Positions 1 through 58,300 of a stretch of 64,000 bases of DNA are shown in pieces. The notes under the pieces were generated by a model. The model did not search any database. It had not been told where the DNA came from and saw only the letters and a list, made by a program, of their open reading frames with translations. Each line of letters opens with the position of its first letter. Position 1 is the stretch's first letter. The stretch comes from Candidatus Omnitrophota bacterium (GTDB lineage: Bacteria > Omnitrophota > Gorgyraeia > Gygaellales > Profunditerraquicolaceae): the NCBI GenBank assembly GCA_029571225.1, contig JAKPTF010000035.1, positions 81,925 to 145,924 on the forward strand, given 5' to 3'. The position numbers and the translations under genes were made by a program.

Positions 1-1
1 T

Positions 2-1381
2 TTCGCAAATAAGGCGCTCAATAGCCGCAAAGACTCCGCTGATATATTTGACATCGAGGGTACCGGTCTTTTGAACCCAATAGCGCATGGAATCCGTATA
101 AACGCTCCTGAAATTCAACAGACGTTCGACGACAAGTCGGTCCGTATCGTCGGTAATGAACGCGTGCTCGCGGAGTTTTGCTTTCGGAATCGAAACGGCA
201 TCGTTCAAGGCAACCTCTTCGGGAATCGAATCCGCGTGGTCCCTGAACAACTGGCGCAGTTTTGACCGGTATAACGAACGCATGCTATAATCCCTGAAGT
301 ACGCTTCATACATCTTATCAATGGTATATTCTGGTCCGCGGCGCAGCACCCAATTCAACGGGCGCAGGTCCATGCCGGGCAGATGGCGGGCAATGACGTC
401 TTTGACCACTGCCCTCCTGCGGGCGATCTGGGCCCACGCGTCGATGTACGCTTTGTCGAATCTGGCCATGAACGTGGCGCCGGCGGCGTCATTCGCGAAT
501 ACAGGGAGTAACGCGAGCACGTTGAATTCTGACACGCCCTGGCGCGTATCTTCCTGCTCCCAGACGAAATTCTCGAACACAAAGAAGCGGAATTCAACGT
601 CGAAATCGGCGATATTGGCGATCTCGTCCCCGACCACATATATGTATTTGTTGCGCAGGCCATGGTCGTTGCATCCAAGGATATGCTCGAGCACGAGATG
701 AGGCGTCAGCTTGGATATGAGCTGCAAGAGCATCTCGCAATTGTTCTGCCGGATCCACATGGATACGACGCCGTTGGCCGGCGTGCCACGGAACACCGCT
801 TCCACGAGCACATCAGGGCCCGCGGGATTGCGGAACGCGTATGCCCCTTCCTGGATATCGACGCCGAGCAGAACATGCTGCAGCTCAACCCAGATCGCTT
901 CATACGCGACATCGTATCCGGGCTTATCGGCCTGGCTTTTCAGAATACACTCGGTCATCGTTCCGTTATCAAACCTGATAAGGAGTTTGTAAACATTCCT
1001 GCCGATGCTTGCGTCCTTAAGGTCGACGATCCTGTAATTGCCCTCATAGCGGCAATTCTGCCTGACCCACGCGTCAACGGCCTTGTCCCATCCCAGCTCG
1101 GCCATGCGCTCCTTGAACAACTCCAGCTGGATGGCTTTGATGTACGCAGGGGCATCATTAATGATCGACCGGTACGCCTGTTTGACGGCGCTGGAGATGT
1201 CCGGGTGTTTCTCGACAAAATACATCCTCGCCAGCGCGGTCGGGCCGACCACCTTTGACGGATTGAACAACGGCCCCGTCAGCTCGTCGAGCGTTATATC
1301 CGACCTGCCGATGTCTTTCCTGATCGCGTCGTTCAACAGGCCGAGCTTCTCCTGATAGTACTGCTGCAGGATATCCCTTCT
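2..1381 (-). other. Module: protein-kinase-like / aminoglycoside-phosphotransferase-like fold (runs off the left edge)
   Basis: Translation near 600-680 reads LGCNDHGLRNKYIYVVGDEIANIADFDVEF. This is a D-x4-N catalytic-loop-like motif followed about 15 aa later by DFD (a DFG-like metal site), the spacing typical of kinase-like phosphotransferases. The rest is unrecognised. Confidence 0.35.
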
Positions 1382-4300
1382 TCCTCCGTCGCGCAGGTCA
1401 CGCGTCCGCTCTATGCGGATCAATCCGGCAGACCGTGCCTCCAACGTTATGGAAATATCGGTACGGTTGTCCATTCCCGCGAGGAATGAAACATCGCCGA
1501 CGACCGCCTCCCGGGCCAAGGTTATTTGCCCGGGGCCTAGCAGGGCCGTAAGGCTTTCGACGTTAAAATTCGCTGCCCGGTCTTCATCGAGAAGGTTAAG
1601 GGCGCCGATGACGATATGTTCTTCGTCAAACCGTGCGACTGCGACGATATCGCTGTCCGGGCCTGACAGCGGCATATACCAGCCGCGTTTCAGAACCGGA
1701 TAACGGTCACGAATTGAGAAAAGTGTTCTGCCTGCCGCCTGATCGACAGTAGCCGTTTTATCGATAGACGGAGCCGGCGCAGTCTGCCCCATATCTGTCT
1801 TGAACATATGGTCTTTGCCGTATACCTGGCCGTTGAATATCAGGGAGTAGCCCGGCAGGACAAGATACAGGAAATAAAGCAGCGCTTTGCTTCTCTGATC
1901 AAGCAACGCCCAGGGATCGCGAAAATCGAATGCATCGTGCTCCGGGCCTATGCTGACGAGATTCTGCTGAAATCCTGTTGGCATGGCGTCGAGTTCGGTA
2001 AGATAGCCGTTCAATACCGATTGCTTGGTGCGATCGGACAGGGCTTCGGCGGCGTAATTCCTCGGCTTCCAGTTGTAAACGCCCGTATAGCGAAAATCGG
2101 CAAGTTCAAGAAGCTCCGGATGACGTTCGAACCCTTCGAACAGGATGAATGCATCCGGATAGGCCCTGCGGATCGCATGGATGAAATCATGGGTCAGATT
2201 GCTTTCGACCTGGATGCCCCAGTTTTCCTTGACCTTGTCAGGCAGCGTTGACAGTGCGGCATCAATGCGGAAACCGTCAAACCCTTTTCCCATCCAGAAC
2301 ATGCCGATATTGACCGCTTCTTCCCGCACCTCGATGCTTGACAGGTCAGGCTGCGCGAGACTGCCCCACCGCCGCGGGAAGCACCTGAGGGGAACCTCGT
2401 CGGTCGCCGACACGACAAACAGGGCGTTACCCGAGGTGACGATATATTCTCTGCTGCCGCGATAACCGATGGACTCGCGCAGGCTTTTCTGCGCCGGGAT
2501 ATAATCGACTCTGTCATTGCTGATCATGACCGATCCTGCTTCCGGATACGTGCCTGCTGTTATTGTGTCGCGGAATTTTTTCCCAAGCTCTACCTTTCTC
2601 AAGAGCGATTCCGCATCGATCTCCCCTCCCTGGACGAGCGTCGTTTTTTCCTCGGTAAAGAAGTTTCCGTCCGTTGCGTTGGTAAACAGGAACCGCTGGG
2701 GATGGTCCCTGGTCAGAGAGGCTGATTTTGCGACGTGCTGGTTTGCCAGCCAGTCGATGATGACCCTGATGCCAAGACTATGCGCCTCATTGATGAAATC
2801 CCGCAGGTCGTCTTCATCCCCGGCGCGCTCGTCAATGAGGTATGGATCGAGGATCTCAAACGGGCTGCCGGTATGTTTCATGACGCCGAGCAAATAAATA
2901 TACGCGATGCCGCTGTCAGCCAGATACTGCAGTTCAGCCCGGGCCTTTCGAAGCCCGGATACATTGTTTCGCGCGTCGCAATAATCCCGCACTGCCATTT
3001 CATAAACGATCCTGCTTGACGTATCTGCCAGAGCCCACGGCAGGGATGTTTTATCCGGGAATAATAAGACGAGCCCGCGCAGCGTTTCTGCGACGCTCCA
3101 TGCCTGGGCTGAACAGCCCCGTTCATTCCAGCTTCCGGCAACGATGTCGCAGTCTCCGTCCAATATCTCCGGCAGCGACCGCAGCGCGTTCATATCGATC
3201 AGGCGGGAAAGCTGCGTGAAGTAATGCTGTTCCGCGAGCAGTTGGACGGTGCTGTCAATGCCGTACACGCGGACGCACGCTTCGATGAACACGCCGGACA
3301 GCCACGGCCATATGGTCCCCTGGTGATATGAATATTCATCCGTATGATACGCCTTGTACTGCGCGTCCTGTGCCGCGAGCGTACGCAATCCGTACGGGGT
3401 AAACAGCTCTTTATTAACCGTGTCCACGATGGTCTGCGCGCGTTCCGCGTCAAACAGCCCTGCCGCCACGGCAAACAGCTGGTTCGGCCGCACCTGGCAG
3501 CCCTGCTGCCGATCGCCGTCAAGCGTATCGAACAGGCAGCGAGCCTCTTCATTCCAGAACGCATCGAAGTTTGACCTGACCTTGCCGGCAAGATTGCGGT
3601 ATCTTTCCGCCTGTGCGCTTTTTCCCTCTTTGCCGTACATATCCGCCATCACGTTGAGGGCATTGAACCAGAGGGCATTGATATCCACTGCCTTGCCGTA
3701 GCGGCTCGTCACCGGGGTCCCGTTACGCTGTGCGTCCATCCACGTGAGCTGGGTGCTGCGGTCGCCGGCGCACAAAAGGTTGTCGCGAGGATCCATTTTC
3801 ACGCTGATCGTGCGCAGGTATGATACGGCGCCTTCGTTGTCTTGCCAGACATGCGGACGCGTAATACCCTGTTCATATGCCTGCATGATCTCCTCGGCCA
3901 AAGATCTCACGGATGCCGCCTCTCCGGCTGCCGAAGACCTTTCGATCATTTCGTTGAGGAACGCGTAATCTCCGGTCGCCTCCAGATACTTCCCAAGCGC
4001 CCACATGAACAGGAGGCTTGCGTCGACGCAATTATATTGCGGATTTTTCCCGTCCCCGACCAGGTTCGGCATCAGCCCATGATCGACATAGCGCAGATAC
4101 GTCCGCAGGACTGCCTTGAAGAGCGCAGTCCGGCCAGTGCATAAACAAAGACCGGGCAACGAGATCATCGCGTCCCTGGTCCAGTTATATAGCCATGCGT
4201 TTTGGCGCTGGTCGAAATGCGGCGATCCGGCGATAACGGTCCATCCGGAAAGCTTCTTATCATAATAGAGGAAATGGCCGGCTGCGCTCTGAAGTTGTTC

Positions 4301-7300
4301 GATAAGCCCGGCATAACGCAGCTGGCGGTCCTGAGCCTGCGCCGGAGACACCAGACACATGGTCCCGGTCTCCTGCGCGACGATCCTGACTGGTTTTGCG
4401 ATCTTCCAGACGCCTGAAGTGATCTCAAGATTGCCCTGGAACGGCAACGGCAGGTCTGCGGGGATCAGCGTGTAATATTCGGCTTTATTGGGCCCTGCGC
4501 GTTTGACCTTGAGCGGCAGGCGCACGCCGTACTCGTTCACGAGGTCTGCCCGTATCGATTCAAAAGAAACCGGGCCTGTTCTCTTTGTTTCGAAGTTAAT
4601 GTGATCAAGCGCCTCAAGGTGCACCATAACCGAAAATTCCAGATTCTCCCGAAGTTCCTGCACCTTGCCCTTGATATGGAACGTGTCTCCTTCACGCTCG
4701 AGGATCCGTTCACCGTCTTCAAGATATGATGTTATTGCCATCTTGTCGATATCGTAAATCTCGCCCGGGACGCGCGGCAGGGCTTTCCTGCCGGGACGCT
4801 GGAGGAATGCATTGCTCCACAGTGTCAAATATGCCGCCGCTGTCAGCGAGGCTTCGAGGACCCTGCTGAACCTAACGGACTGGGCCTGGTATATTCCGAG
4901 CGAACCGTTTTTGAACTCGTCATGCGCCCAGAAGATGGCATCGAGGTACGACTGCGGATCGACCGATGCCGGAATGAGCGTGTTTCCGGTCTGTCGGCGG
5001 CGATTGATCGCGATGCCCTGATGTTGGATGATCCCTTCCCAGAACGGCGCCCCCATTTGTAATCCCGCGTTGGCTGAGACATCTGCTTCGGTGTACTCCG
5101 CAGCTCCGGTGTACCGATCCGAGTCCTGGACCTGGATGTCGGATGCAGCAAGGAGCTGACGCTGCTCGTCAATATTGAACTTTGCCTTGAAAATGAACCT
5201 TCCCGCATAGCGCATGCGCTCAATCCGGTCCCTGAGCTGCTGAAGCTCCACGCCGATGCGCTGGCTCGCCTCGTACGGCTGGATATTCCCGTAGATCACG
5301 ACCTGGATACCGGCTTTGACCATGCGTTCGATATTGCTGTCCGTAAATGCCCGGTCCCGGCCGGCTTTTTCAGGCACGAGCCTGCCAGAATAGGAAACGA
5401 CCATTTGCTGAGGATTCAGCCCGATATTCTTTTTGGCCGCCTGCTTGGCCTTTGCGACCTGTTCCGGCGTCACATGCTCGTAATCGGATACTCCGATCCG
5501 GTCTAATTCTTTCCTGAAAAATTCCGCCGAATATACCCGGTTGTCACCGTTGGTCACGCCGACCAGGTCGGTGCCGGGATCGCGCGCGTTCATCTCATAT
5601 GCGTGGATGGCGCTGACCGCCTTGGTCACGTCCGCGCTCCTCAGGCCGGCGCTTGTCATATCCCACAGGTTGTCGCCATTCAATTCCTTGCGCAGGAAAA
5701 GCCACAGCCATTCATCAGGCACCCCTGCGGCGCGCAGGAACTGCAGGCCGTACCCTTTGATGTCTCCGCCGATAAAAACGCGGTTGCGGTACGTGTGCGT
5801 TGTTGCGCTGAAAATCGCTTCGTCCAATATCCGGTATGCATTGTCGATCTCGCGGCTGTCCGTGCCCTCCGTCATGATCCTGGATTTCTCACCGTAGAAA
5901 ATGCGGCGCCACGCCGCCAGCGGCAACGCCTGCCCGTCGTTGATATCGACGAGAGGCGCCTTATACGCGCTGCCCAGTTCTTCGAGCTGTTTTACCTCAA
6001 GGAACCTGATCAGTTCAAGGGCTGCCTTCGTGAAGAATTCGGTGAATTCAAAGCTCGACGCAGGAGCATCGGACGTATTATATTCATAAAGGATATTGAC
6101 ATAATAGCCCTTGATATCTTTGATCATATATGTCCTGATCCCCAGCTCATTGACCGCTTCGTACACATGGAACGCCACCGGGCTTCCGCCGACAAAAGTA
6201 TTGAAGACCTGCTTCATCCTGCGGATATTTGAAACAGGCACCGGCAACTTGCTGTAATCGAGTGTTACCACGCGGCCGAGCTTATCCCGTGTTTTCATGT
6301 AGTACGGTTCGACGTACAGGATCTTCGCGCCGAGACGCGCCATGGCGGTGGAATGGTATTGTTCGACCCGGCCCAAACCGCCAGCCAATAATGATATCTC
6401 CGCAGCCACGACATAAATGCTCCTTCCGCTCAACTGGGGCGCCCATTTTTCAAGCCAGTTTGCGCTCCCTCGGTCGAAATCAAGCATAAGGATGATCGCG
6501 TTGATGAGCGAAGAGCGCATCCACTGGCTGCGCGTCAGCAGCCAGTCAACGAGCTTCTGCTGGTCTTCTGCAATCATCTGCGCTATGGCCTGAAGGACGG
6601 GATACATCGACTCAATCGGGTATTGCGACCACTGATCGAGGACGGATGCGTAGGCATCGACGGCGGCGAACAATGCCTGTCTTCCCTCGGACATGGACCG
6701 CTCGATATCGCGGCGGATATATTCGAAATCATGCGCCCAGACCGCAATAACCCTGGGTTCTGCGTTCAAATATACGGTACTGTCAAACTCGAGGCTGAAA
6801 TTATTGTCTTCTGCCCTGATCAGGCCACGACGGCGCAGCCCTTCGAGGCGCTGCAGTATCCTGGCGCGATCGGCTGCCAGGCCATGATCGGCGAATACCG
6901 ACGCTGCTGGATCTATGATAGCGCTGACTGAAAGCGCTGTTTCGCATGAATCAGCCATGCTCAAAATCGCCTGCGCGGTGATGTACGACTCAAGCCATTC
7001 AGGGTCGTTCCATCCGCGCTGGTTGTCAAAGAGGTTCGGGAACGCGAGTGGGATTCGGTATGAAGGCCCCCTGCCGCCGTCGCGCAAGGCCAGGTCTCCT
7101 GTTGCCCCGGAATAATATATCCGGATCGGTGCCTGATACCGCAGGCAGAACTGCAGCTGGAAGGCGCTGACAAAGATCACGCTTTGTCCGATACGAATGA
7201 TCTCGTCTTCCATCTTATAACGCCGGGCCCTGCGCAACTCAGGCTCACCGCAGGCCCTGCCTCCAGAGCACGTCGATACCCGATAGTAAAGTTCTCTGCC

Positions 7301-10300
7301 GGAAAGGAAGTCCGCCGCGCTCTTTTCTACCACGACGCGGCCGTCGTAGAATTTTAATTCGTGTTGTTTATTCTCGTTCTGTGCGCCGCCGTCGTTTTTG
7401 GATGGGAAGAACTTTTGGTAATACTTCTCATTATCCGTCAAAGCAAACTTGAAAAGGTTCTCTGCGGCTCGTAACGACGCCTCCCAACTGTTGTCTGAAA
7501 AGACGGCATTACGCACCAGTTGCCGCCATCCCAGATCAACTGTCCGTTTGCTCCAAATAGAATATAATTTGTCGAAGGCAATTATACTATTGGCTATCGT
7601 CTGATGGAAATTGCCCTCGTCTATCGGGAAACGTACGCCATTCGCTCCGGCTTCATCTTCAGTGATGTTAATAGTCCGGGAGAATTCGGGGACATGGAGA
7701 GTTTTGACTGTGGATTTATGGCCCTGCTTGTCAGAAACAAGACATGGGGAACCGAAAGCGAGCGCTTTCATGGGAGAAATTCCGCCGGGCTCCCAAAGAG
7801 AAAAAGCAATAAACAAATCCCCGCACAAAAACGTGCGGGATTTGATCCTCTCTGGATCTCGATCCGGTAAATAATCATTGTAAAACCCAACCCTGCCCGG
7901 AAATTCAAAAGCCAGACGAATTAACTGATCGGTCCAATATTTATCTCCCGGCGCATTAAAAACAAACGCCACATCGGGATAAAGCCCGCTGTGAATTATG
8001 TTGCGGACGAAAGAAACAACAAAATGGATACCTTTCTGTTCAGCTGCCCGGGATAACAACACAATAACAAACGTGCCATCATGAATAAAATTCGAGCGCC
8101 CATCAGATGCAAACCAGTATGGATGGAAATTGGCGACAACGTTCTTGGCGACACTGCGTTCATGGTAGACAGCATCCACAAGACGCTGTTCATCGGCATT
8201 ATTTTTGACATCCAGGCATGAAAGGCCGAACCACTCCTCCTGCAACTTTTTTAATGATACTCCGTTCGTTATGGCAAAAAGCTTCTTTTGCGCCATTTTT
8301 TCTCTAAAGATATGCATTAATCCTTCCCCGCCCCCTTTATCGTCAGACGCAAGATAATCCGCCATCTGCCCGGGGCTGACGGCGACGACATAATGAGCAT
8401 GCCTGATGAAGGCAGCCATCAGGTTGATATAATTATCGCGGTGAGGATCAATGAACCAGCCGTAATCTTCCGCGGGTAACCCTATGTTGCTTAAAAGATC
8501 CACGCCGTCCTGGAATCGCTCGACCTTGAATTGATAGTCCTGGCCGTTGTTATGCACCCAGCCGATCGTTCGTGTGTATAAGAAATGCGGATCCTGCTTA
8601 TACAAGGAACGCATTGAGTTCAAATGAGCCATAAGCGGCGCGCACATCCAGTCATTGCCGATGACAATAGACGGATACACGTTCATAACTTTCATGGCTT
8701 CCAGGGCACCGAAAGAAAGGAAAATCGCGCGCAACATCTCGTGCTCTTTGGTCACGCGGGACACGGCAGAATTGCTCTCGATCCGGTACTGACCGTATAA
8801 TGAATCGGCGAAATACGGATTGTCCAGGAGAAGATGTTCGACCCCGTTAATCCGGGTTCTCGCAAGACCAGACGAGAACATGCCATGCCTGCCCACATAC
8901 ACCTTGAGCGGCTTGCCGGTATATTTGACGTTAAAGTGCGCAATGGTAGAATGTTTCAGGTCCGCAACAGAAAAGTTATTCTTTTCAATATATTTGTATA
9001 ATGGGCTGACAATATAAACTTTCAGGCCGGACTTTACAAGAACCTCGGCTAATTCTCCCACAACGCTCGCCATGCCACCCGCGGCAGATACCGGTTTAGC
9101 CTCGGGCGATACGAATACTATCGACCCAATATCAATCCAACGTAATATTTGTGCCGCGATATCGGTGATTCGGTTTGTGCCGGTATTTCTCTTTGCTTTC
9201 TCAAGCAGCATCCGTATTCTGTTCTGAAGACCGGGATGCTTTTTCTGCATCTCATGCAGCAGCAGGGTCAGGTCGCCGGTAATAATCCCGGATTCACCGA
9301 TGAACGCAGCCAATTGGCTGAACCGTTTCAAGAACTGGCGCGGTTTGCCGGCAATCAGCGGTTCTTCCAGCCACATGAAGGCAAAGTTCGATGCGATCCT
9401 GACCGCCAAATCTTCTTCGGTGTAACGCGCCAGTGCGTCGCGCAACGCGGTTGTTTGAATGTCGATGCCTTTTTCGTCGCGCACTTCCCTGACGGTAAGG
9501 ATTGCCGCTTGGTAGGAGCCGACCGTATGTTCAAGCGTCAATGAGCGCAGTTCGCAGCCGGTAAAAACCTGCGTCGAATTGCTCTGAAGATCCACGACTC
9601 GATAAAATTTCCTGATTGACTCATGTACGCCGATAGCATCCCACAGCGGCGCAAGATCAACCGTCACCCGCGTTGTTTCCCAGCTTGTATTGACCAGGAA
9701 TATGAGATTTTCCTTGCTGTCATAGCGGGCAATAACGAATACTTTATCTGATGCATCGAATATCCAGTTGTTCCCGCGGCTGAGGACCGGATGTTCCTTA
9801 TAGAACGCCAGCGCGCGGCGGTAAAAATCCTGAACGGTTTCACCCGTTAACTGTTCGAACTCAAGTTGCGCGTAATAACGCTGCCTGTCGGCTTCTTCAT
9901 AATCGTGTTTCGTGTAATTATCGATGCGGATGCGGTGGACTTCTCCGATTTCCTGTCGGTTGTACACCATAAGCGCTCCGCGCGTTGCGGCAAGCCAGGC
10001 CCAGACGGCAGCACTGAGTTTCGTTGGGCCGAAACTCTGCCATCTGTCCATAGCGCGGAAATAGTCGTGCGTTTCCAGCGCCGTCACGACCTGGCTGCCT
10101 TCCGGCAATTGTCCCAGCAGCCATCGGAAATGGCTGTCAAGGACGCTCTTGGGAGCTTTGCCCAGCAGCACATGCTCCAGGTCGTCATGCGTGCCCGAAT
10201 CCATGGGCATGACGCCTGATTTGATAAGCTGGATGTATTTGCCGTAGTTCTCGCCGATAAAGATGAATTCAGGATATTGCGTTGATATGCGCGAAACAAG

Positions 10301-49300: not shown

Positions 49301-52300
49301 GAAATTGGTGACCGCCTTAAGCACGGCGGCATATCCATCGGCAGAGCTTCCGGCAGGAATGCGGTTCAAATGGTACTGGGAAAGGTCGATTTGATCGAGC
49401 AGGCGGGCAAAGGCCCTGACGCCGATGTGTTCCGAGGCGGTGATCACAATGATCTCGTAATCGCGTTCGCTGCGATTGGCCAGGGTGAAACCGGTAATGG
49501 GGTTTTCGCCGACATTATTGTTCAACACGACATGGCTTGCGGAAGAAAGCGTGATCTGCTCCGGAGGACCACGCATTCTTAGAATCCCCATGGTCGCGGA
49601 AAGCTTTGCGCTGTCGGTTTCGGCATTCCAATCTGCAGAAATATTTTTTGGCCAGGGCATGAACCTGACGACTTGCAGTCCCGGATACAGCGAAGCGAAC
49701 GGGATCACATCGGTGGTCTCGCCCGGTTTGATCGTAATTATCTTAAAATCGATATCCATAACCAGAGACACTTCGGGATTGTACACTCCGGCAGCATCCT
49801 GCTTGAATATCACATTGCCTTCTTCATCAGTCTTCAACTGTGCGGCCATAGCCGGCAAGATGTGGGAATAAACCGCCCAGCCGTTACCCTGTGTGACCTG
49901 CGCCGGCACCAACGCATACCTGCCGGAGACAATCGTTTCTCCGGAGGACTTGAACAGCCTGGCAAAAATATCCTTGAACGTCCAGTCGATACTCGGGGCG
50001 ATGGCATCGGTGTTACGCAACGTATGCGAATATCCGGCGGGAATACGCACCAGGCAGCCGAACGGCATCTGCTGGCTGTATTTCGCTTCCAAAGCATTGA
50101 TGTCGGTTTCCGAGATAATCCTGGCCAGCAACGCATGTTCTTCTACGCCCAGATAAATACCCTGACAGCATTTCTGCAGCTCATCCGGAGAAATGCTTGC
50201 TGCATACAAAGCATCCCGCAGCAACACTTTGGCCAGGCCGCTGTCCGGAGCGAACCCGTATTTGATGGAGAGCTCGTGGATCAAACCGTTGTAATCCACG
50301 AAAGCGATATTCTCCGCGCCTGAAAAAGTCAATTCTTCTGCTTCATGGGTGTGGATACCCTGCCTGCTTGCGATCCGATTCTCCCCCTCGGAAAGACTCA
50401 AACCCAGGGCCCGGGACGACGTCTGGCTGAACGCGGTATACTGCCGCTTACTATCTTGCACCCAGCGACTGACCACAAATGCTGAGGGAATCACGGAAAC
50501 CTGTTTGTCCTGCGTCATATATATTGTATCGGCATTGTCCACGATCGCCGCGCGGATGTAGAGGGCACGAGTGTATTCCCGGAGGAACGTGCTGCCGTTG
50601 CGCATGGCGATCGTTTCCGCCAAGAGGCCGAACGTCTTGCTCAAGGCGAATCCCTGTTTGCCAAGGCGCAAGGCCTTCTGCCAGAGATCCCGGTCATTGA
50701 TCCTCCAGAGGGCGGGATGCTTCTGCGTATCTTCCCTAATCTGTTGCTCCAGTGCTTCCAGCTGCCTGATCGCTGCCAGCACATCATCGTATTCCTGGAT
50801 ATCGAGGAAACTTTTCAACTCATCCAGATAGTGCGGGAGCTCGCCGCCGTCCGCATGCACGGCCTGCATCTGCGCCAGGTACTGCGTGGTTAAATCCTTT
50901 GCCGGCAGACCCATGACCAGATCCGTGTTCCTTACGTAAATCTTCTTCACCTCCAGGGTTATCACTACCACCGCGCCAAACAACATCAGCAGGTCATTAA
51001 ATCCACGCATGCCCTCGGCAAACCGGGTGATCTTTAAGAAAGCATCTGCAATTACCCCTCCGTCGAGAGACAGGCCGGCATGTTCCCTGGCCCAGCGGTA
51101 GATGTTGATATATTCCTTGACCGGTCCTCGCCAGCTCCAGTCATGGCCTGCGGCGTTTTCCGTGACCCTCTCCCAGTGCTCGGGAACCCGGAAGGTGTTG
51201 ATCGCCCGCCAGATCGCCGCGTACAATTCCTCGTCGTTTATGTTCTCGAACAGCCAGCCGTTGCCCTTACCGGTGAACCATTCGTATTCCTGGAAATTAT
51301 CCGCCAGTCCGCCGGTGCGGCGAACCACGCCGGGTACCCGGTTGATCAGGGCTACCACCGGCCGGGTGCCGAACGGCTCAAATTCAGAAGGATACAGGAA
51401 GATGTCCAGGGCGTGGAACACGTCGCGCTGCTCGTCAGTGGTGTACTTCTGCTTGAAATTTACATTCTTCGGCCAGCGTGCCTGTAGCGCCTGTAGTTCG
51501 TCAGCGACCTCGGTGGCGTATTGGCTTGAGGTGTCCCCCTTGCCCAGGTACATGAACTGTACTCCGCCATTGGTCTCCAACAGCAGGCGGTCGATCGCCC
51601 TGACCACTTGGCGTACACCCTTCTGTTCGTCGATACGCGCGACCATACCAATAAGGGGAATATGCTGATCCACCTTGAATCTGAGCTTCGCCTGCATCGC
51701 CGCTTTTTTGAGCGGTTTCTCCTGCTTGCTCACCGGCTGCCAGATCGGATAATATATCCCGTTAGGAATACCGAGCAGGTCGCCGATGCGCGCCCTGTAC
51801 GCCTCATGCAGGCCGCTGCCTCCGGAAGGCGTCATCATCTCGTCGCGGTTAGTGCGGGATACTGCATTCAATTTGTCCGCGTGGGTGATCGCCCCGCGCA
51901 TCAGGCAGAAATGATGCTCGCTTTCCGGCTGGCGCATGCCGAACCAATGTTCACCATTGATGCCAAGCTCTGGGAAGCGATTTCCGGGGATCCAGCCGGC
52001 GGTGTGCTTTGGATTGTGCACGGAGAACAATGTTGCGGCCTGCGAAATAATCGGATCGTTGCGGTACTTGGTCTTGACAAACACCGGCACCAGCGCAGCC
52101 GGCCAATCGTTGGCGTGCAACACCTGCGGCTGCGGCATCTCGCCGGCTTCAACCAGAGCCTTGACCGCCTTGAGCGCGCCTTCGGAAAGTCCCACTGCGA
52201 AGTTCAACTTATCGCCGGAATACGGCTGTCTGAACCAGGCACTGCCTGCGGAGGTATAATAGGTGGTACTGCCTTCCCGCACCTCGCTGAACCAACCTGC

Positions 52301-55300
52301 CTCTTCCAGGAAATAATAATTTACGTTGCCGTTAGTCCCCTTCCAGATACGGCATGGCAACTGTTTATATTCTATATCCACCATACAGGTGATTCCGGTA
52401 TTCACGAGCATGCTCTCATCCACGGCATCATACTTATACAGGATCACCGATACGTTCAATCCGAAATTCGACAGGGCAGTAGCCAGTTCGCCGCAGACGT
52501 CTCCCAGGCCGCCGGTCTTGAAGAACGGTTCAGATTCAGGCGTGACGATCACTACATTTTTCACTCCGTTGGGATCGAGCAGGTTGCGAATGCGGTAGGT
52601 AATATCCTCTGCGAACACCGCGCCTTCGTTATCGCGGATATGCTCCTGGATCTGTCCAGCGATGAATCGCAGCAGTGCGACCACATCCGGGTTGGCCAAC
52701 ACGTCTTTGATCCCGGCGTATTTGCGTTTGCTATGCGCAATGCTCTTGAGCAGAGAATTAAGTTTTACAAATTCCACACCAAAGATTTCGTCAGTGTGCA
52801 GGGTCACTTGGGCGGCCTCCGGGATGACGTAGGCAAAGACATGGGTAAAGGTATTCTCGATCATGCCCTGCTGGATGAAGTCGCGCTGGATCCTGATCCC
52901 CCGCTGCGATGTAATACGGATAAGATGATCCGCCTGAACCTTCATCCCCAGCTCCTGTTGCATCCGGGATACCGCTGCCTGCTCGGGCGTTTCTCCAGCC
53001 AGAACATGGCCGCTGGCCGATGCCTCCAGCAAGCCAGGATACATCTTCTTGGAAGCAGCACGTCTTTGCAGCAGGATCTGGCCGTCCTTGTTGATCACAA
53101 AAACATACACGTCGCTGTGCCATTCGCCGGCCAGATGCATCTGAGTCTTGGGCATCACCAGGCCGATGGCATTGCCTTCGGCGTCCCTCACGTCCAGGTA
53201 CTGCTCGCCGGTGACTCCGGCGTAACCAATGATCTCGAAATCCAGCTTCAGGCTGTTGATGATATGTTTGGCCAACTCGCGGGAGAAGGCAAAGGCGGAA
53301 ATCGTTCCGCGCATTTCCGCTTCCCGCAACCGCTCGATGATTCTGCTCACCGCAGGGGCTTCCGATTCGAGGATCTGCCGAGATTCCAGGCCAGCAAAAT
53401 CGTCCACGCCCAGGGCGCGCAATACCATAGCCACAAACGTCGCCTCGTCCACAGCCAGCGGATCCGCTGCCTCGAGCATCGCCCGGGCCAGCTCATCGGA
53501 AATCCCCTGGTTGTTTAAAACCCATTCCCGGGCATGCAGCCTGCGGAAGATGATAATATCCTGCTTTGCCTCTTCCCCGCCGTCGGCGGAGTACGCCATT
53601 GCTGTAAATATACCTGCAGACCCGAAAATACCCGCCACGGTAGGTTCCCGGGCCTGCAGAAGTGTAACCGTATTAATCCCAGCTCTCAGATTCTTGACTC
53701 TCAACCAGATCACCACCACCGCGCCGTAGGCGATAAGACCGACCTTGCGAAGCGCCAGTCTGATCATGCCGAGGATGCTGTAGACGGAGCTCTTCAGGGC
53801 CTGCGCGTTGCTGCCGCCGTCTTTCGGATCCGCAAGGATACTCTCGCTGGCAGTAACGATGATCAGCTCATAATCATCATCGCTTGTATTCTTGATTTTA
53901 AATCCCGTAATCGTATTTACCTGGTCGTTATTATTCAGGACGATCTGCGAACCGCCAAGGATATCAGGGATGACCTCTGGAGGACCTCTCGCTTTTATAA
54001 CCGTCAGCAATGCCTTTAATTTCGACCTCTCTGCCGCCATATTCCAGTCCCCGCCTATATTCTTCGGCCACGGCATGATCCGCACGATCTGTAAACCGGG
54101 ATATAACTGGGCAAAATCGAATACCTTTGTCTCCTTGCCGGGTTTCACAGCTATCATCTTAAACACAACATCAATTATCTTATCCGCAACAGGATTATGG
54201 ATGCCGTCTTCATCCTTGGCAAATAACGGCAACCCATCTTTATCTGTCTTTATAGTGGCTATCATATGATCCAGAATATGAGTGTACAATTCCCATCCAT
54301 CGCCGTTCTCGATCTCCGGAGGCAGTATCTGAGGCGCCCCTTGGGCTTCACCGCCACCCTGTACCTTAAATACCTGCAGATACAAGTCTTTGAATGTCCA
54401 GTCAATACTTGCTATCTCCTTATTAATATTGCGGATGGTATGTATGTATTCTGCAGGCGTCCGCACCACATACCCGAATGGAACCTGAGATGTATATACC
54501 TTCTCCAGTTCATTGATATCTTCATTTTTCCACATATCCCATACCACCCGTTTTTCCTCAGCGGTCAAGGTTATACCCTTAGTCTTGATATAGTCATCCA
54601 GCAATGCCTCGTTTTTCTCAACGCCGCTGGTCGTCCTTTGTTTTTCCAGGTCATACAGCATATCCATGCCCAAGGCGTTAAAAATGTTCTTGTTCCCCGC
54701 AACGTTGTATTTCTCAAGCAAATCCTTGATCAACTTCCCGTAATCCATATACCCCGTATAATCCGACCCCGAAAGAGTCCTTTCGGCTATCTTGGGATGT
54801 TTATGTATCCCTTGCCGGCTCCCTTTCGGGTTCTCGGCTTCGGTCATGCTGAACCCTCTTGCCCGGGAAGATTCAGGATTGAAGCTCGGATACTGCCGCT
54901 GGCTGTCGCCGTCTTGGCCTTTAACCAACCGATTCACAATGAACTCATATGGGATAACCGTGACCTGCTGCTGCAAACTCATATACAAGAGGTCTTCATT
55001 ATTGATAAATGCCGACCTGACAACCAACTCCTTCGTATAATCAAGAGTATCGGCTGTGGCGCCGAGTTTCTCAAGGTCTTTGCCTAAAGCGTCAAACGCA
55101 ACATTGATGGTCCGGCCTGTGGATTGCCTGTCCAATGACGCTTTCCATCTGTCCGCACTGTTCGATTCCCACTGGCTGCGATCGTTATAAATCCCGGCAA
55201 CTTCTTGCTCCAGCCGCTCCAACGCTTCTAATGATTGAACCGCAGCGTTAAACTTCGCTGTATCCAGCAATTCTTTCAGCTCGCGTACAAACCGGATTCT

Positions 55301-58300
55301 CCTCACCGAAAACTTTGTGGTCACCAGCGCGCCCAGCCTGTCCGCCAGCCTGCGAAGCGGCCGGAACAGCGTCCTGAACAGCGCCAAATTGCTGTAAGCG
55401 AAATCTCTAAGGAACTGACCGCAACTCTTTGTGCCGCCATCTTGCTTTGTTTCTGACTGCAAAGCACCCAAAGTTTCCTCATCGAAGGGCGAGATGAAGA
55501 TGCTCATCAGGTCATCGCCGTATTTCTCGCGCAGGGCCTCAAACCAGGCCAGGCCGCATTCCAGGATGATCAGCTTTGAGCCCTGGGCAAGCTTGGTATC
55601 CAGGCCTTCGATGTAAACAGTGTCTTTGTGCTCTTCTTTAGTGACGGGATCGATATATACAAACTCATCTACGATATCTTTGACTGCCATGCCCTGAAGC
55701 TGGTTATTGATCAAAGCGGTGATCACATGGCCCTGCCATTCCTCTTCTACAAAGAACCAGTGATCGGGATTACGGTAGTGATAATTCACGCCCATCTGCT
55801 CGCCCTTGCGGATGTTGCGGGTATGGATCAGAACGAATTTCTCGATCAGATCGCTATATTTGCGCTCGAAAGCCTCCCACACCGCACCCTTGCCGCCTCC
55901 CGGAGGGCCGGAGTACACGACGAACTTGGCAGGCGTGCTGTATGCGGACAGATCGATCGTGCGCAGCCGCTCGGCATAAGCATCAGCTGTCGCCTGATCA
56001 TCGCTCAACAGATCAGCAAAAATCGGTTCTTTGCCATTCTGAATGTTCTGCTGATCGATTCCTTGAGCGAGATTTATGAATATGGCCAGCGAGAAATCCT
56101 CGGTAAGATGAGCCATAATCTTTTCAAACTCTTCTTGGCTGCTGGCCCATTTATTTACCAGGACCTTCTTGTATTCGTTGCGCCGGGCAACCTGGTTCAC
56201 TGCCTCGTTGATGCGGTTTACAAATTCTTCCTGCTTGGTAGGCACGTAGAAATCTTTTTCCAGCAGCGCCTCGCCGTTGGCTAATTTGCCCATGGAAGCA
56301 GCTTTAACTTTCTCTGCTTCTTGAACCTCGCGGGAATGAATACGCTTGGCGATCTCAAGGCCGACAACGCCATGCAGCGCCTTGGCAGGATTGCTGATCG
56401 ATGCCTCGATCTCTTCATCCGAGAACGGCGAAATGAAGATGCTCATCAGGTCGCTGCCGTACTGGTCGCGCAGGGCCTCAAACCACGCCAGACCGCACTC
56501 CAGGATGATCAGCTTGGAACCCATCTGCAGCTTCGATTCCAGGCCTTCGACTTCCGCAACACCCCTGTGCTCTTCTTTGGTAACCGGGTCAAGATACACA
56601 AACTCGTCAGTGAAGTTGCGGATTGCCATACCCTGCAGCTGATTATTGATCTTTGCCTGCAGCACGTAATCTTTCCATTCCTCTTCTGCAAAGAACCAAT
56701 GCCCGGGATTACGGTAATGATAATTCCTGCCCATCTGTTCGCCGTCGCGGATGTTGCGGGTGTGGATAAGCACAAACTTCTCGATCATGTCGTTGTACTT
56801 TTCGGAGAATTTCTCCCACACCGCGCCCTTGCCGCCTCCCGGAGGACCAGAGTAAATGGCGAACTTCGCCGGCGTGTTATATGCCGAAAGATCAATCGTG
56901 CGGATCAGCGCTGCATAATCATCCGCAGTAGCGGAAGGATTGTTCAGGAATGCAGCAAAAATAGCAGCTTTGCCTTCTTTAATATTCTGCTGATCGATCG
57001 CAGTAGCGAGATTGGAGAAGATGGCGAGTGCGAATTCCTCGGTCAGGCGGTTAATCGTAGCTTCGTATTCGGCCTGGGAATTGGCCCATTTATTCACCAG
57101 CACTTGTGCATACTCATGCCGTCTGGCTACCTGGACCACCGCTTCTTCGATACGATTGACGAATTCGTTCTGATTGGTGGGAACGTAGAAATCCTTGCCC
57201 TGCAGGGCCTGCGCGGCGGCAACCTTGTCCAGCGATTTGGCCTTGACCTTCTCCGCTTCCTTGACTTCGCGGGCATGGATGCGTTTGGCGATCTCCAGGC
57301 CGATGATGCCGGAGAACGCGCGCTGCCTGATGATTTCGATGGCGCGCTTAAGCTTGTCGCCATCCTGCTTAGGTTGTTTCTCCGAAGCCCCTGCACTAGG
57401 AATATCCGATTGATTCTCGACTGGAGGAGCACGGGCAGAAACTCCACCCCTCTCGCTCTTTTGTATCATTTCGGCTTCCGCCCTCACGTTTAGCTTCTCA
57501 GCTCTTTCGCACAATTCGTTAATTCTTTCTATCAATTTGAAATACCGATTATTTTTGTTACCGTCAACATACCCTGGGGTAGACTTTATTAATTTATGCA
57601 CTTTTGAATCCCGGAAAGTTGCCTTTAATGCTTTGGCTCTACGGCCAATAGCTTCATAATCAGCCTCGCTTAGTCTTTTTTCTTGCTCCTGCTGCTCCAG
57701 TTTCTCAAGCCATTTCATCCCGGTGCGAAACTTGGTAATTTCTGCAGCATCCTTTTTCGTACTATCCCCACTGCAATTGGGCTCGCTCAATATATGCTGT
57801 AGTTCTAAATCAAGAACGCGCATCTTATTCAAGCGGAGCTTGGCGGGCAATACTTCGAAGATCACATAACCGGAAACGACAAGTCCATACATAATGCTTA
57901 ATCCGACGGCCTTCGCAAAGCCCACTTCCGGATCTCTCTTGAAACGCCCGTAAGAAAGGGCGGTGTAAATCAATCCTATCGCTCCCCAGGCAAAAAGCAT
58001 AACAATAAGTAAAGCCGGAGTTAATATCGCGGGCAATATGGCAGCCGCGACCGTGCCTCCGATAACACTCAAAGTGACAATTGCGTAAACTGCAGCAACA
58101 AGCTCGGATTTCTTGGTGAGATCTGCCTGCTCAACTTCTCTCACAACGTAGTTCACATGCTTTCCGTCCGCATTTACCATTTTGGCAGGGTCATTTTCGG
58201 TTCCCTTCCCGATATAATTCATTCCACGGTAGAAACTGCGGAGGTTCAAAACGAAGTTCTGAGCCTCTTTATTCTTATCCTTTACTTTTCCGTCCTTGCG

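Follow-up and report, generated by a model that had tools for sequence, protein, structure and literature searches.

The 64,000-nucleotide stretch analysed here (the window) raises the question of why a short motif, (K/R)-D-G-G, recurs along a single giant protein. The minus strand of the window carries an open reading frame (window 2–64000) which encodes 21,333 aa without a stop, is open at both ends and fills the whole window. It belongs to a multi-enzyme ("Archaeovorin"-like) giant protein of Omnitrophota, in which glycogen and glucan enzymes are strung non-repetitively with membrane blocks. Glycosyltransferase, methyltransferase, NUDIX and kinase-like domains are numerous in it. The motif lies in short unstructured linkers separating soluble enzyme modules, each with one or more domains, and small membrane-anchor segments (Table 1), and it is best explained as a "punctuation mark" that one lineage of these giants uses at the protein level.

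Table 1. The 37 DGG sites, motif-free blocks and TM mini-segments of the window protein, all on the minus strand
Feature	Residues (aa)	Sequence	Window positions	Remarks
Motif-free N-terminal block	1–2853		55442..64000	multi-TM module + two guanylate-kinase-like P-loop domains
QDGG	2853–2856	QSETKQDGGTKSC	55433..55444	N-terminal block ends; 18 homology breakpoints 10 aa upstream
KDGG	3393–3396	ILADPKDGGSNAQ	53813..53824	module X / TM mini-segment; coil, pLDDT<50
TM mini-segment			53585..53812	79 aa; DGG at either side
ADGG	3472–3475	AMAYSADGGEEAK	53576..53587	TM mini-segment / NUDIX+GT5+GT1; coil, pLDDT<50
LDGG	4312–4315	HAGLSLDGGVIAD	51056..51067	3 aa past last helix of confidently folded GT-B domain; 26 homology breakpoints 10 aa upstream
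TM mini-segment			50852..51055	71 aa; DGG-bracketed
ADGG	4383–4386	MQAVHADGGELPH	50843..50854	TM mini-segment / module X paralogue; coil, pLDDT<50
RDGG	5144–5147	LRNLARDGGKEEL	48560..48571	past NUDIX (end 5111); 14 homology breakpoints at 5144
KDGG	6106–6109	KNRHGKDGGAQEQ	45674..45685	unannotated segments either side
NDGG	6374–6377	SASQFNDGGRISL	44870..44881	35-aa spacer follows
QDGG	6409–6412	GSAAKQDGGNEEG	44765..44776	GlgB_N/CBM48 begins 20 aa later
RDGG	7061–7064	SVGSFRDGGAARG	42809..42820	Alpha-amylase_C (end 7048) / HATPase (start 7091); P0003 homology begins at 7067
KDGG	7992–7995	VATGKKDGGEKEE	40016..40027	HATPase module / PGI-like module; P0001/P0002 homology begins at 7994–7996
KDGG	8733–8736	WGYGKKDGGEEDA	37793..37804	34 aa past end of PGI-like homology
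QDGG	8849–8852	DDNSEQDGGDVKS	37445..37456	TM mini-segment follows; coil
TM mini-segment			36980..37444	158 aa; DGG-bracketed
KDGG	9007–9010	PADIEKDGGKLAQ	36971..36982	TM mini-segment / GH94 (start 9050)
KDGG	9839–9842	IVTMGKDGGERKE	34475..34486	36 aa past GH94/GH65C end (9803)
FDGG	10192–10195	LLEKTFDGGDKKT	33416..33427	TM mini-segment follows
TM mini-segment			33125..33415	100 aa; 2 TM; DGG-bracketed
KDGG	10292–10295	KYEGKKDGGLDLS	33116..33127	TM mini-segment precedes
NDGG	10569–10572	ASRRQNDGGIIVS	32285..32296	unannotated segments either side
RDGG	10862–10865	ARTKPRDGGNAGV	31406..31417	cupin-like stretch about 45 aa later
FDGG	11136–11139	KANVWFDGGAPYE	30584..30595	
KDGG	11169–11172	ISALCKDGGTEAG	30485..30496	NTase-like segment follows
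HDGG	11423–11426	QTRVKHDGGTEDK	29723..29734	TM mini-segment follows
TM mini-segment			29462..29722	90 aa; DGG-bracketed
KDGG	11513–11516	GESEHKDGGNVKK	29453..29464	iPGM-like domain (11540) 27 aa later
LDGG	11939–11942	LDFAALDGGALVG	28175..28186	Metalloenzyme (end 11917) / HAD (start 11949)
KDGG	12167–12170	KVAVYKDGGEDAV	27491..27502	38 aa past HAD end (12129)
KDGG	12222–12225	RTFTLKDGGIGSI	27326..27337	may be beta-turn within small domain
KDGG	12313–12316	PKDFIKDGGIKKD	27053..27064	
KDGG	12741–12744	LAAPGKDGGKYIR	25769..25780	soluble HAD-like module / multi-TM GT2 block
Second motif-free block	12745–15376		17873..25768	multi-TM GT2 x2, deacetylase, GH9-like domains
LDGG	15376–15379	IREDSLDGGLLSR	17864..17875	multi-TM block ends; methyltransferase 62 aa later
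ADGG	15785–15788	LAGKQADGGRQST	16637..16648	past methyltransferase (end 15665)
KDGG	16079–16082	SGRRQKDGGALDE	15755..15766	
LDGG	16390–16393	NGRGQLDGGALDD	14822..14833	
RDGG	16561–16564	NGCQQRDGGTLVI	14309..14320	HAD (16583) 22 aa later
KDGG	17335–17338	TTGPPKDGGKASF	11987..11998	amylase+GT5+GT1 module follows
NDGG	18869–18872	FFPSKNDGGAQNE	7385..7396	19 homology breakpoints 12 aa upstream
RDGG	18973–18976	GDLALRDGGRGPS	7073..7084	debranching-enzyme-like module follows
RDGG	20870–20873	RTRDLRDGGRRDI	1382..1393	final site in window

Exactly 37 in-frame DGG were counted, the first at aa 2853 (window 55441) and the last at aa 20870 (window 1382–1390); 21 of them are preceded by K (15) or R (6), while the other 16 have neither. 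The preliminary description had given at least 37 and 21 copies, and all its coordinates hold, as do its quoted examples (GKKDGGE at 40024 and 37801, GKKDGGL at 33124 and GKDGGE at 34483) and the absence of DGG from the N-terminal 8.5 kb (none in the first 2,853 aa, 55.4–64 kb). Its single-digit chance expectation was also right: with 6.0% D and 7.2% G in the ORF, 1000 global shuffles gave a mean of 6.7 DGG (sd 2.6, max 16) and 0.8 [KR]DGG (max 5), which confirms the enrichment. Shuffles confined to 300-aa blocks gave the same expectations, and the Poisson probabilities were 4e-16 for DGG and 1e-22 for [KR]DGG. No other tripeptide is as strongly enriched as DGG (z 11.7), and among tetrapeptides KDGG ranks first (15 versus 0.35 expected). 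The motif is tight at both its last position (15 of the 21 KDGx are KDGG) and its second (15 of the 17 KxGG). Elsewhere in the ORF, xGG with x other than D is avoided (73 versus about 105 expected), with EGG absent altogether. A set of 167 related sequences (185,716 aa) contains fewer DGG than expected (15 versus 57.9) and only two [KR]DGG.

Could the repeat be a signal of the nucleic acid itself? The 11-mer AAAGACGGCGG (plus strand CCGCCGTCTTT), for which at least nine copies had been claimed, was found nine times with both strands counted, and AAGGACGGCGG three more times; all copies of both are in frame 0, with none on the opposite strand. The commonest 8-mer, GACGGCGG, has 27 copies on the coding strand, 26 of them in frame, versus one on the other. 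This asymmetry would suit a DNA or RNA element, be it a module-shuffling recombination joint, a Chi/KOPS-like polar oligomer, an internal ribosome-binding site or an RNase site, as would the persistence of the motif in P0004, the closest relative, despite a different module order, and a joint use of GAC-GGC slightly above the context expectation (26/37 versus 48%, p=0.008). However, under synonymous shuffling the 8-mer was enriched in frame 0 only (26 versus 7.9 expected), with 0 and 1 copies off frame against 0.08 and 1.1. The stereotyped codons described earlier are real, but they are not specific to the motif: throughout the gene, C-ending codons are favoured over T-ending ones ahead of GGN. 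Where D precedes G outside the motif, GAC is used in 73% of cases, and where G precedes G, GGC is used in 66%; N, Y, V, T and other residues show the same preference before GGN, and in P0004 this context bias fully accounts for the codon choice at the motif. The K codon (AAA/AAG) and the third Gly codon follow background usage, sequence conservation around the sites is confined to positions −3 to +9, start codons show no enrichment after DGG (13/37 versus a background of 0.40), and the serines of SSP[IV], the counterpart of the motif in related giants, are encoded by both the TCN and AGY families. Since the DNA motif is enriched in frame only and its codons follow the gene-wide C-ending preference, the signal is a protein motif and the repeated 11-mer is its by-product. 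A DNA or RNA element is thus largely refuted and highly improbable.

None of the 37 DGG falls inside a Pfam best stretch of the window protein; these stretches cover about 23% of it, so that the chance of such a result is about 6e-5, with the junction status of about 20 of the 37 sites given by the absence of a Pfam match alone. For the DGG at aa 2854, 3473, 4313, 4384, 5145, 7062, 7993 and 18870, homology to independent proteins begins or ends no more than about 10 aa away. In the window, 20% of 51 clusters of homology breakpoints are ≤25 aa from DGG versus 5.5% under the null (p=0.001), and in its DGG-bearing part the share is 10 of 30 (33%). Two AlphaFold models cover 7 DGG sites, all in coil, 6 of them being in low-confidence stretches. 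In the GT-B model, the core (pLDDT>90) stops at segment residue 930, the DGG being 933–935, and 4/4 DGG are in coil with pLDDT<50; in the second model, 3 DGG lie outside the PGI-like core. The seventh site, aa 7992, lies where coil passes into helix and is modelled with moderate confidence. The surroundings of DGG are less hydrophobic (fraction 0.25) than those of control xGG and DGx sites (0.34–0.35). As a whole, the first reading of the locus therefore stands for the punctuation of module junctions but not for the recombination joint. One exception is the NUDIX/GT5 boundary at about aa 3804, which has no motif. Certain sites, e.g. TFTLKDGGIGSISIRV at aa 12222, resemble beta-hairpin turns.

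D-G, N-G and G-G are well known to form turns. The motif could therefore be an uncleaved linker signal, a tight turn, hinge or docking site in a chain that stays intact, and it would be read by a chaperone, a scaffold (e.g. HEAT/TPR modules) or the membrane-insertion machinery, which would organise module folding and topology. The position of sites in coil between helices and the hairpin-like appearance of some are in keeping with this, as is the lack of a detected protease in the window. DGG also brackets 5/5 short TM segments, marking soluble-to-membrane transitions as suits a topogenic or hinge role, and is absent within either multi-TM block; the multi-TM module of the N-terminal block is conserved in giants of Omnitrophota/Elusimicrobiota. 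However, most DGG sites adjoin no TM helix, a plain hinge would not call for the same four residues to recur at dozens of junctions that share no homology, and stand-alone multi-domain homologues manage with ordinary, variable linkers that lack DGG. We consider an uncleaved signal possible, though rather unlikely.

Related giants add a further line of evidence. P0004 (57–60% identity) has 13 DGG versus 1.8 expected, 6 of them [KR]DGG, and 0/13 lie within Pfam best stretches; it lacks the motif at a GT1/HEAT boundary where the window has DGG. As judged from sequence, more distant giants replace DGG at homologous junctions with SSP[IV], SSAG or DNGN. SSPI occurs 5 times in P0006 (0.05 expected) and 3 times in L004 (0.06 expected), and SSAG 4 times in P0012 (0.05 expected), at junctions equivalent to those of the window. 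At aa 3472 P0004 keeps DGG and P0006 has SSPV in the identical column, at aa 4312 P0006 carries ASSPI, and KDNGN of L009 aligns with the first DGG of the window (aa 2853). The conservation at junctions that the preliminary description had looked to in homologues was thus seen in P0004 at aa 3472, but distant giants carry other motifs instead.

A concerted swap to the chemically different SSPI and SSAG at like junctions is left unexplained by a linker signal, and equally by chemistry that proceeds spontaneously, without an enzyme. Asp-Gly and Asn-Gly are labile bonds and hot spots of succinimide/isoaspartate formation, and D/N-G is common to DGG, DNGN and DNGG (window, L009 and P0013), where it might provide linkers with built-in weak points or timers. 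Yet the K/R preference and the second Gly would have no explanation, and DGx tripeptides other than DGG show no enrichment (77 altogether, KDG[^G] just 6), which makes this reading very doubtful. Post-translational modification by one of the protein's own many transferases, on the flanking Lys/Asp in the DGG lineage and on Ser (O-glycosylated or phosphorylated) in the SSP lineages, would fit the exposed linkers and the wealth of glycosyltransferase, methyltransferase, NUDIX and kinase-like domains, with SSP[IV] a plausible sequon. It is nevertheless unlikely: DGG offers no hydroxyl acceptor, K/R is not obligatory (16/37 without), DGG and SSPI would demand different chemistries at one junction, and we know of no sequon that matches the motif.

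Because non-homologous junctions share the motif and other lineages swap it at homologous ones, we infer a trans-acting reader that co-evolves with it. Most likely this reader would be a dedicated processing protease, and (K/R)-D-G-G a putative lineage-specific processing site in a polyprotein-like chain, to which we assign a probability of roughly 0.45. Cutting at or beside Gly-Gly would mature the giant translation product into single glycogen/glucan-metabolism enzymes, multi-pass membrane modules and small TM peptides. The lineage-specific replacement at homologous junctions strengthens this idea, which is plausible although unproven. The sites are the first concrete candidate points at which giant proteins of this kind might be cut into pieces. 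Against cleavage, freed TM peptides of 70–160 aa would have no obvious use, some domain boundaries lack the motif and some sites are beta-hairpin-like.

No peptidase domain, GG-specific as suggested beforehand or of any other family, was detected by domain search anywhere in the window protein (21,333 aa), where HExxH is also absent, nor was one detected in P0004. Full-length Omnitrophota giants are described as having C39 (double-glycine) and S8 peptidase domains near their N-termini. Unlike a canonical C39 leader, the sites of the window protein lack the −7/−12 hydrophobic periodicity, and their P4 residue is K/R rather than hydrophobic.

One uninterrupted minus-strand frame of 21,333 codons fills the window and runs off both of its ends (Table), and all other frames of the 64 kb show ordinary stop densities. 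Within it, D-G-G occurs in frame 37 times, from aa 2853 to aa 20870, and K or R precedes 21 of the copies. The preliminary description, which had counted at least 37 and 21, was therefore exact; its quoted examples are all present in frame, and the N-terminal 8.5 kb is free of the motif as it had stated. The ORF contains 6.0% D and 7.2% G, and 1000 composition-preserving shuffles gave a mean of 6.7 DGG (sd 2.6, maximum 16) and 0.8 [KR]DGG (maximum 5), in line with the single digits anticipated; shuffles inside 300-aa blocks had the same outcome. DGG ranks first in enrichment among 8000 tripeptides (z = 11.7) and KDGG is the top tetrapeptide, with 15 copies against 0.35 expected (Poisson P of 4e-16 and 8e-20, respectively). 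K-D-G continues with G in 15 of 21 cases, and K-x-G-G has D in 15 of 17. GG in total is at its expectation (110 vs 112), so that DGG makes up one third of all GG; xGG with residues other than D falls short of its expectation (73 vs about 105), and no EGG occurs. Chance or composition as the origin of the count is ruled out by the global and local shuffles. Duplication of a linker cassette was also rejected, since there is no internal paralogy or repeat within the window ORF at E<1e-6 and the flanks have low information content.

The sites are placed between the units of the protein. None of the 37 falls inside the best Pfam stretches, which cover about 23% of the protein and thus give this result a chance probability of about 6e-5, and many lie 3–40 aa beyond a Pfam boundary, such as the site at 7061 between Alpha-amylase_C (ending at 7048) and HATPase (starting at 7091), or that at 11939 between the phosphomutase (ending at 11917) and HAD (starting at 11949). 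About 17 of the 37 have a Pfam boundary or a homology breakpoint within about 40 aa, and it is to these that independent boundary evidence is limited. Homology to proteins of unrelated context starts or stops at the motif: that to P0001 and P0002 begins at aa 7994–7996, where DGG occupies 7993–7995, and that to P0003 covers 7067–8017, from one DGG to the next. Among 164 homologues, the best-supported breakpoint clusters, at 2845 (18 ends), 4304 (26), 5144 (14) and 18859 (19), are each 2–12 aa off a DGG. For all 51 clusters in the window, 20% were within 25 aa of a DGG compared with a null of 5.5% (p = 0.001), and in the DGG-bearing part only, the share was 10 of 30 (33%). In stand-alone homologues, the corresponding linker is an ordinary one that lacks DGG. 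Not every domain boundary is marked, as the one between NUDIX and GT5 at about aa 3804 is without the motif.

Structure prediction located the sites in coil. In an AlphaFold2 model of aa 3381–4420, built on a 58-sequence alignment, the GT-B core keeps a pLDDT>90 as far as segment residue 930, DGG follows at 933–935, and all four DGG sites are coil with pLDDT<50. Three further sites were outside the PGI-like core in a second model, which is weak evidence because its mean pLDDT, from a three-sequence alignment, is only 55.6. All seven modelled sites are thus in coil, six of them with pLDDT<50. Local hydrophobic content was 0.25 at DGG compared with 0.34–0.35 at control xGG and DGx. Five short inter-DGG segments (71–158 aa) contain 1–2 TM helices each, the two long stretches free of DGG are both multi-pass membrane modules, and at some sites (aa 11423, 10192 and 12741, and several in the closest relative) GG is followed by a TM helix within 6–25 residues. 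Where such evidence is available, the sites stand at boundaries between functional units, a feature of polyprotein cleavage sites. A motif so placed could also act as a hinge, as a docking site or as a topogenic signal of a chain that stays uncleaved, which we consider possible, though unlikely.

Relatives were collected with the NUDIX-GT5-GT1 module as query of an exhaustive HMMER search, which gave giant-protein fragments, and the lineage statistics derive from fragments of 1.7–7.4 kaa. The closest relative, P0004 (NCBI MGE5309091.1; 57–60% identity), has 13 DGG against 1.8 expected, 6 of them [KR]DGG. One aligns to window site 3472, most fall in modules without a window counterpart, none of the 13 is inside a Pfam domain, and TM blocks are bracketed by DGG in this protein too. 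More distant Omnitrophota fragments showed no DGG excess, and at the corresponding junctions they had recurring linker motifs of their own. These were SSP[IVL] in P0006 (SSPI 5 vs 0.05 expected, Bonferroni 4e-4), SSPI (3 vs 0.06 expected) plus SSAV in the contig locus L004, SSP- or SSS-type motifs in P0019, P0011, P0023 and P0025, SSAG in P0012 (4 vs 0.05 expected), and PLDNGG, twice, in P0013. A locus of Ca. Gygaella obscura (L009) has four [KR]DNGN, the first of which aligned exactly to the first DGG of the window. Over 167 related sequences, DGG is rarer than expected (15 vs 57.9). 'ARPLPGxP' in P0005 and P0007 was considered as a further punctuation motif and left out of the count because a small repeated domain more probably starts with it. 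Conservation of the motif in related giants, for which a check had been proposed earlier, held for P0004, with its DGG excess and the shared site 3472, but not for the distant giants, which carry other motifs. The alignments suggest a shared consensus that co-varies with lineage, KDGG here and SSP[IV], SSAG or DNGN elsewhere at the same junctions.

Module order differs between the window and P0004 (contig locus L001), the two proteins of the DGG lineage. The methyltransferase directly precedes NUDIX-GT5-GT1 in P0004 and in the window follows it at a distance of about 12,000 aa, and the modules of P0004 (TPR-like, Q-rich, EamA transporter, HEAT) are mostly without window counterparts. Between these two giants the modules are shuffled and the motif persists.

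The DNA under the motif is repetitive as well. Counting both strands, the 11-mer AAAGACGGCGG occurs 9 times, which agrees with the at least 9 copies reported before, and AAGGACGGCGG 3 times; all copies are in frame and none is on the other strand. GACGGCGG is the most frequent 8-mer, with 27 copies against 1 on the other strand, and GAC encodes the D of 33 among the 37 motifs compared with 43% of D overall, both of which at first suggested that the selected entity is a nucleic-acid element. In-frame and off-frame copies of the 8-mer, however, number 26, 0 and 1 vs 7.9, 0.08 and 1.1 in synonymous-codon shuffles, so that only the in-frame count is enriched. In D-G pairs outside the motif, GAC encodes 56 of 77 D (39% where another residue follows); in G-G pairs, GGC encodes the first G in 48 of 73, and in front of GGN a C-ending codon is likewise favoured over a T-ending one for N, Y, H, F, I, V, T, A and S. 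Against this context the codon bias of the motif is marginal (Fisher p = 0.055 and 0.19), although joint GAC-GGC use has p = 0.008; in L001, the motif-specific bias is gone, the codon stereotypy of P0004 being fully explained. The K codons (10 AAA, 5 AAG) and the third Gly codon follow background usage, and conservation is confined to positions -3 to +9, with none in the flanks. The serines of SSP[IV] in other lineages are written TCT, TCG, TCA, TCC, AGC and AGT, a mixture that nothing but peptide-level selection can maintain.

Thus, the codons are stereotyped as had been noticed, but from a gene-wide bias for NNC before GGN rather than a cause specific to the motif, and the 'identical 11-mer' is a by-product of a peptide motif and this codon-pair bias. 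Polar DNA oligomers require frame-independent enrichment and DNA conservation beyond coding need, and neither was observed. In-frame-only enrichment, unconserved flanks and context-explained codons excluded a polar oligomer (Chi/KOPS, uptake sequence) or recombinase core, and with them the recombination joint considered in the preliminary description; a DNA or RNA element of any kind is very improbable. An internal RBS or start site was rejected, as start codons are not enriched downstream of the motif. The codon-pair bias of the coding (minus) strand is strong, extends to every amino acid and reaches 0.76 vs about 0.45 for N and 0.71 vs about 0.38 for Y, and its effect is the avoidance of T before GG over codon borders.

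What is selected is therefore a peptide motif in exposed linkers at module boundaries. The junctions of one lineage have it in common even where they are not homologous, and it is replaced in concert from lineage to lineage. Such concerted turnover points to a common reader co-evolving with the motif, that is, to a trans-acting partner even without cleavage. We assign a probability of about 0.45 to the reading that this partner is a processing protease, which would make the giant ORF a polyprotein. A protease reader fits the motifs, all of small residues, and the depletion of GG elsewhere, as well as published findings on full-length Omnitrophota giants, which carry C39 (double-glycine) and S8 peptidase domains close to their N-termini (10.1101/2023.11.21.568195; 10.64898/2026.06.07.730766). 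Against it stand the absence of a detectable peptidase from the window and from P0004, and a motif unlike the canonical C39 leader. That the motif is a modification site seems quite doubtful to us, and spontaneous Asp/Asn-Gly chemistry would be a most improbable explanation.

The search for GG-specific peptidases (C39, Ulp/DUB-like) advised in the preliminary description returned none within the window. No peptidase domain was identified in the window ORF by Pfam, over the whole ORF and then over 20 unannotated segments at E<=1, or by NCBIfam, none was detected in P0004, and HExxH occurs 0 times in the window vs about 0.6 expected. Besides DGG, the peptide R-[AG]-P-P is enriched in the window (6 vs 0.33 expected; Table), and in most cases an xx[IV]x[IV] stretch resembling a beta-strand comes after it. 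Omnitrophota giant fragments share it whatever their motif lineage, with about 22 copies vs about 1 expected, often near the lineage-specific punctuation motif. In relatives (P0008, P0010, P0012, P0017, P0025, and the L004 ORF at aa about 4730–4900 and 5570–5740), a mini-module of ~100 aa starts with R[AG]PP and ends with RLFHE[LF][GC]H, an HExxH zinc-protease-like motif. Its only Pfam match is a faint SprT-like one (E=0.12), and it is a candidate in-cis metalloprotease. The Logan contigs L002 and L003, with P0008, encode a 709-aa stand-alone protein made up of the HExxH mini-module and a GT5/GT1 glycogen-synthase-like domain 56% identical to the window module, in an ordinary neighbourhood (PAS, MacB-type ABC transporter). 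Modules of the giant thus also exist as normal-sized genes.

Features of the window and its giant ORF (enzyme domains are those found in the window ORF)
Feature	Number	Position (aa)	Position in window (nt)	Strand	Basis
Giant ORF			2–64000	minus
Starch-synthase-like GT5+GT1 units	2				Pfam
GlgB-like branching enzyme					Pfam
GH94					Pfam
iPGM-like phosphomutase					Pfam
HAD phosphatases	several				Pfam
GT2 synthases	2				Pfam
Polysaccharide deacetylase					Pfam
GH9-like pieces					Pfam
SAM methyltransferase					Pfam
GDE_C/amylase					Pfam
NUDIX domains					Pfam
HATPase-like domains					Pfam
PGI-like module					homologues
N-terminal 8.5 kb, GC 0.45–0.47 (vs 0.52–0.56)			55442–64000
Multi-TM module		~600–2020
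Guanylate-kinase-like P-loop domain, first copy		~2380–2434	about 56700–56860
Guanylate-kinase-like P-loop domain, second copy		~2691–2747	about 55760–55930
R-[AG]-P-P		2189	about 57431	minus
R-[AG]-P-P		3337	about 53987	minus
R-[AG]-P-P		4809	about 49571	minus
R-[AG]-P-P		8902	about 37292	minus
R-[AG]-P-P		10921	about 31235	minus
R-[AG]-P-P		12662	about 26012	minus
Antisense ORF			51608–53518	plus
Antisense ORF			56321–57493	plus
Antisense ORF			21255–22304	plus
Antisense ORF			43430–44443	plus

The Pfam scan describes the ORF as a non-repetitive chain of carbohydrate enzymes. Candidatus Omnitrophota bacterium is the label of two NCBI fragments with 100% identity to the window, and alignment of the N-terminal membrane module gave 11 colinear loci in Omnitrophota and Elusimicrobiota MAGs, nearly all still within open giant ORFs. 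The domains of the window ORF make up the repertoire that has been published for the Omnitrophota 'Archaeovorin' or 'multi-enzyme metabolic' giants (10.1101/2023.11.21.568195; 10.64898/2026.06.07.730766). The window ORF agrees with these in its size and Omnitrophota origin, in its GT5/GT1 glycogen-synthase-like modules, methyltransferase, glycoside hydrolases, NUDIX, and sugar-phosphate isomerase and mutase domains, and in its many TM helices. It differs in that HEAT, SecA-like and peptidase domains were not found in the window, which holds neither the N- nor the C-terminus of the ORF; HEAT_2 is present in P0004.

The N-terminal multi-TM module has 35–52% identity to Omnitrophota and Elusimicrobiota giants and no Pfam, NCBIfam or PDB sequence match. 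The N-terminal 1000 aa of the window had no match in genome or metagenome contig collections, nor did a search of metagenome contigs with the window and P0004 alignment give any. The two guanylate-kinase-like P-loop domains share an identical signature, YSGPPGGGKGAVWE, and related giants have 2–5 copies of this unit. The long antisense ORFs (337–636 aa) inside the giant gene are most likely spurious, a result of opposite-strand codon composition.

Omnitrophota giant genes reach 85,000–147,000 codons, and the published work states that no cleavage points are known; cleavage was suspected because peptidase domains are present (10.1101/2023.11.21.568195; 10.64898/2026.06.07.730766). The central question on these giants is whether each is one multi-megadalton chain or many cut proteins, and the missing cleavage points have also blocked structure prediction of the natural units. 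A statistically strong, lineage-changing protein-level motif supplies explicit candidate boundaries, and its practical value is that it gives testable cut points where maturation is in question. Cleavage can now be looked for in existing metaproteomes, as peptides ending in ...DGG or starting right after it, the motif can rationally guide the splitting of giants into modules for folding and annotation, and motif type compared with protease type across complete Omnitrophota genomes offers a handle on the reader enzyme. Tentatively, the Omnitrophota giant ORFs may encode genuine bacterial polyproteins punctuated by a code that differs between lineages, (K/R)DGG in the lineage of the window and DNGN, SSP[IV] or SSAG in others, read by co-evolving processing proteases. 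Processing of one product of >20,000 aa would then yield, by the dozen, stoichiometric carbohydrate-metabolism enzymes, membrane modules and small TM peptides. If true, viral polyprotein maturation would have a cellular equivalent, at a scale known in no cell.

The host protein class is already known; neither of the two Omnitrophota giant-gene preprints describes a junction motif or cleavage points, and the other literature searched does not mention the motif. We rate (K/R)DGG as a new form of inter-module or processing signal. NRPS and PKS megasynthases also have short recurring linker elements between the catalytic modules of very large proteins, but theirs are uncleaved and join repeated homologous modules, whereas the modules flanking DGG are unrelated enzymes. 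The GlyGly-CTERM/rhombosortase signal occurs only at the C-terminus, where GG is immediately followed by a TM helix and a basic tail. A subset of the window sites does have a TM helix after GG, but all sites are internal, only a minority precede a TM helix, and DGG also occurs after TM segments. C39 signals are N-terminal amphipathic leaders, hydrophobic at -4, -7 and -12, that are cut by the peptidase domains of bacteriocin ABC exporters. They share Gly-Gly at P2-P1 with our motif, whose 37 sites are instead internal, with K/R at -4 in 21 of 37 and no hydrophobic periodicity seen upstream. On the features compared, the motif thus belongs to neither of these defined families; the preliminary description had likewise not recognised it as a known sorting or cleavage signal.

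Viral polyproteins have cleavage sites with Gly-Gly or small residues, such as the LxGG of coronavirus PLpro and the G-A/G of alphavirus nsP2, and polyubiquitin is processed at LRGG by deubiquitinases. The differences are that the gene here is bacterial and chromosomal, that P4 is K/R and P3 is D, that no papain-like, DUB or other protease was found in the window, and that cleavage is only proposed. The likeness is a short small-residue or GG motif that recurs at the unit boundaries of one long product and is lineage-specific, as co-evolution with a protease would predict. By this analogy, the closest functional likeness of DGG appears to be with the GG cleavage sites of viral polyproteins and polyubiquitin.
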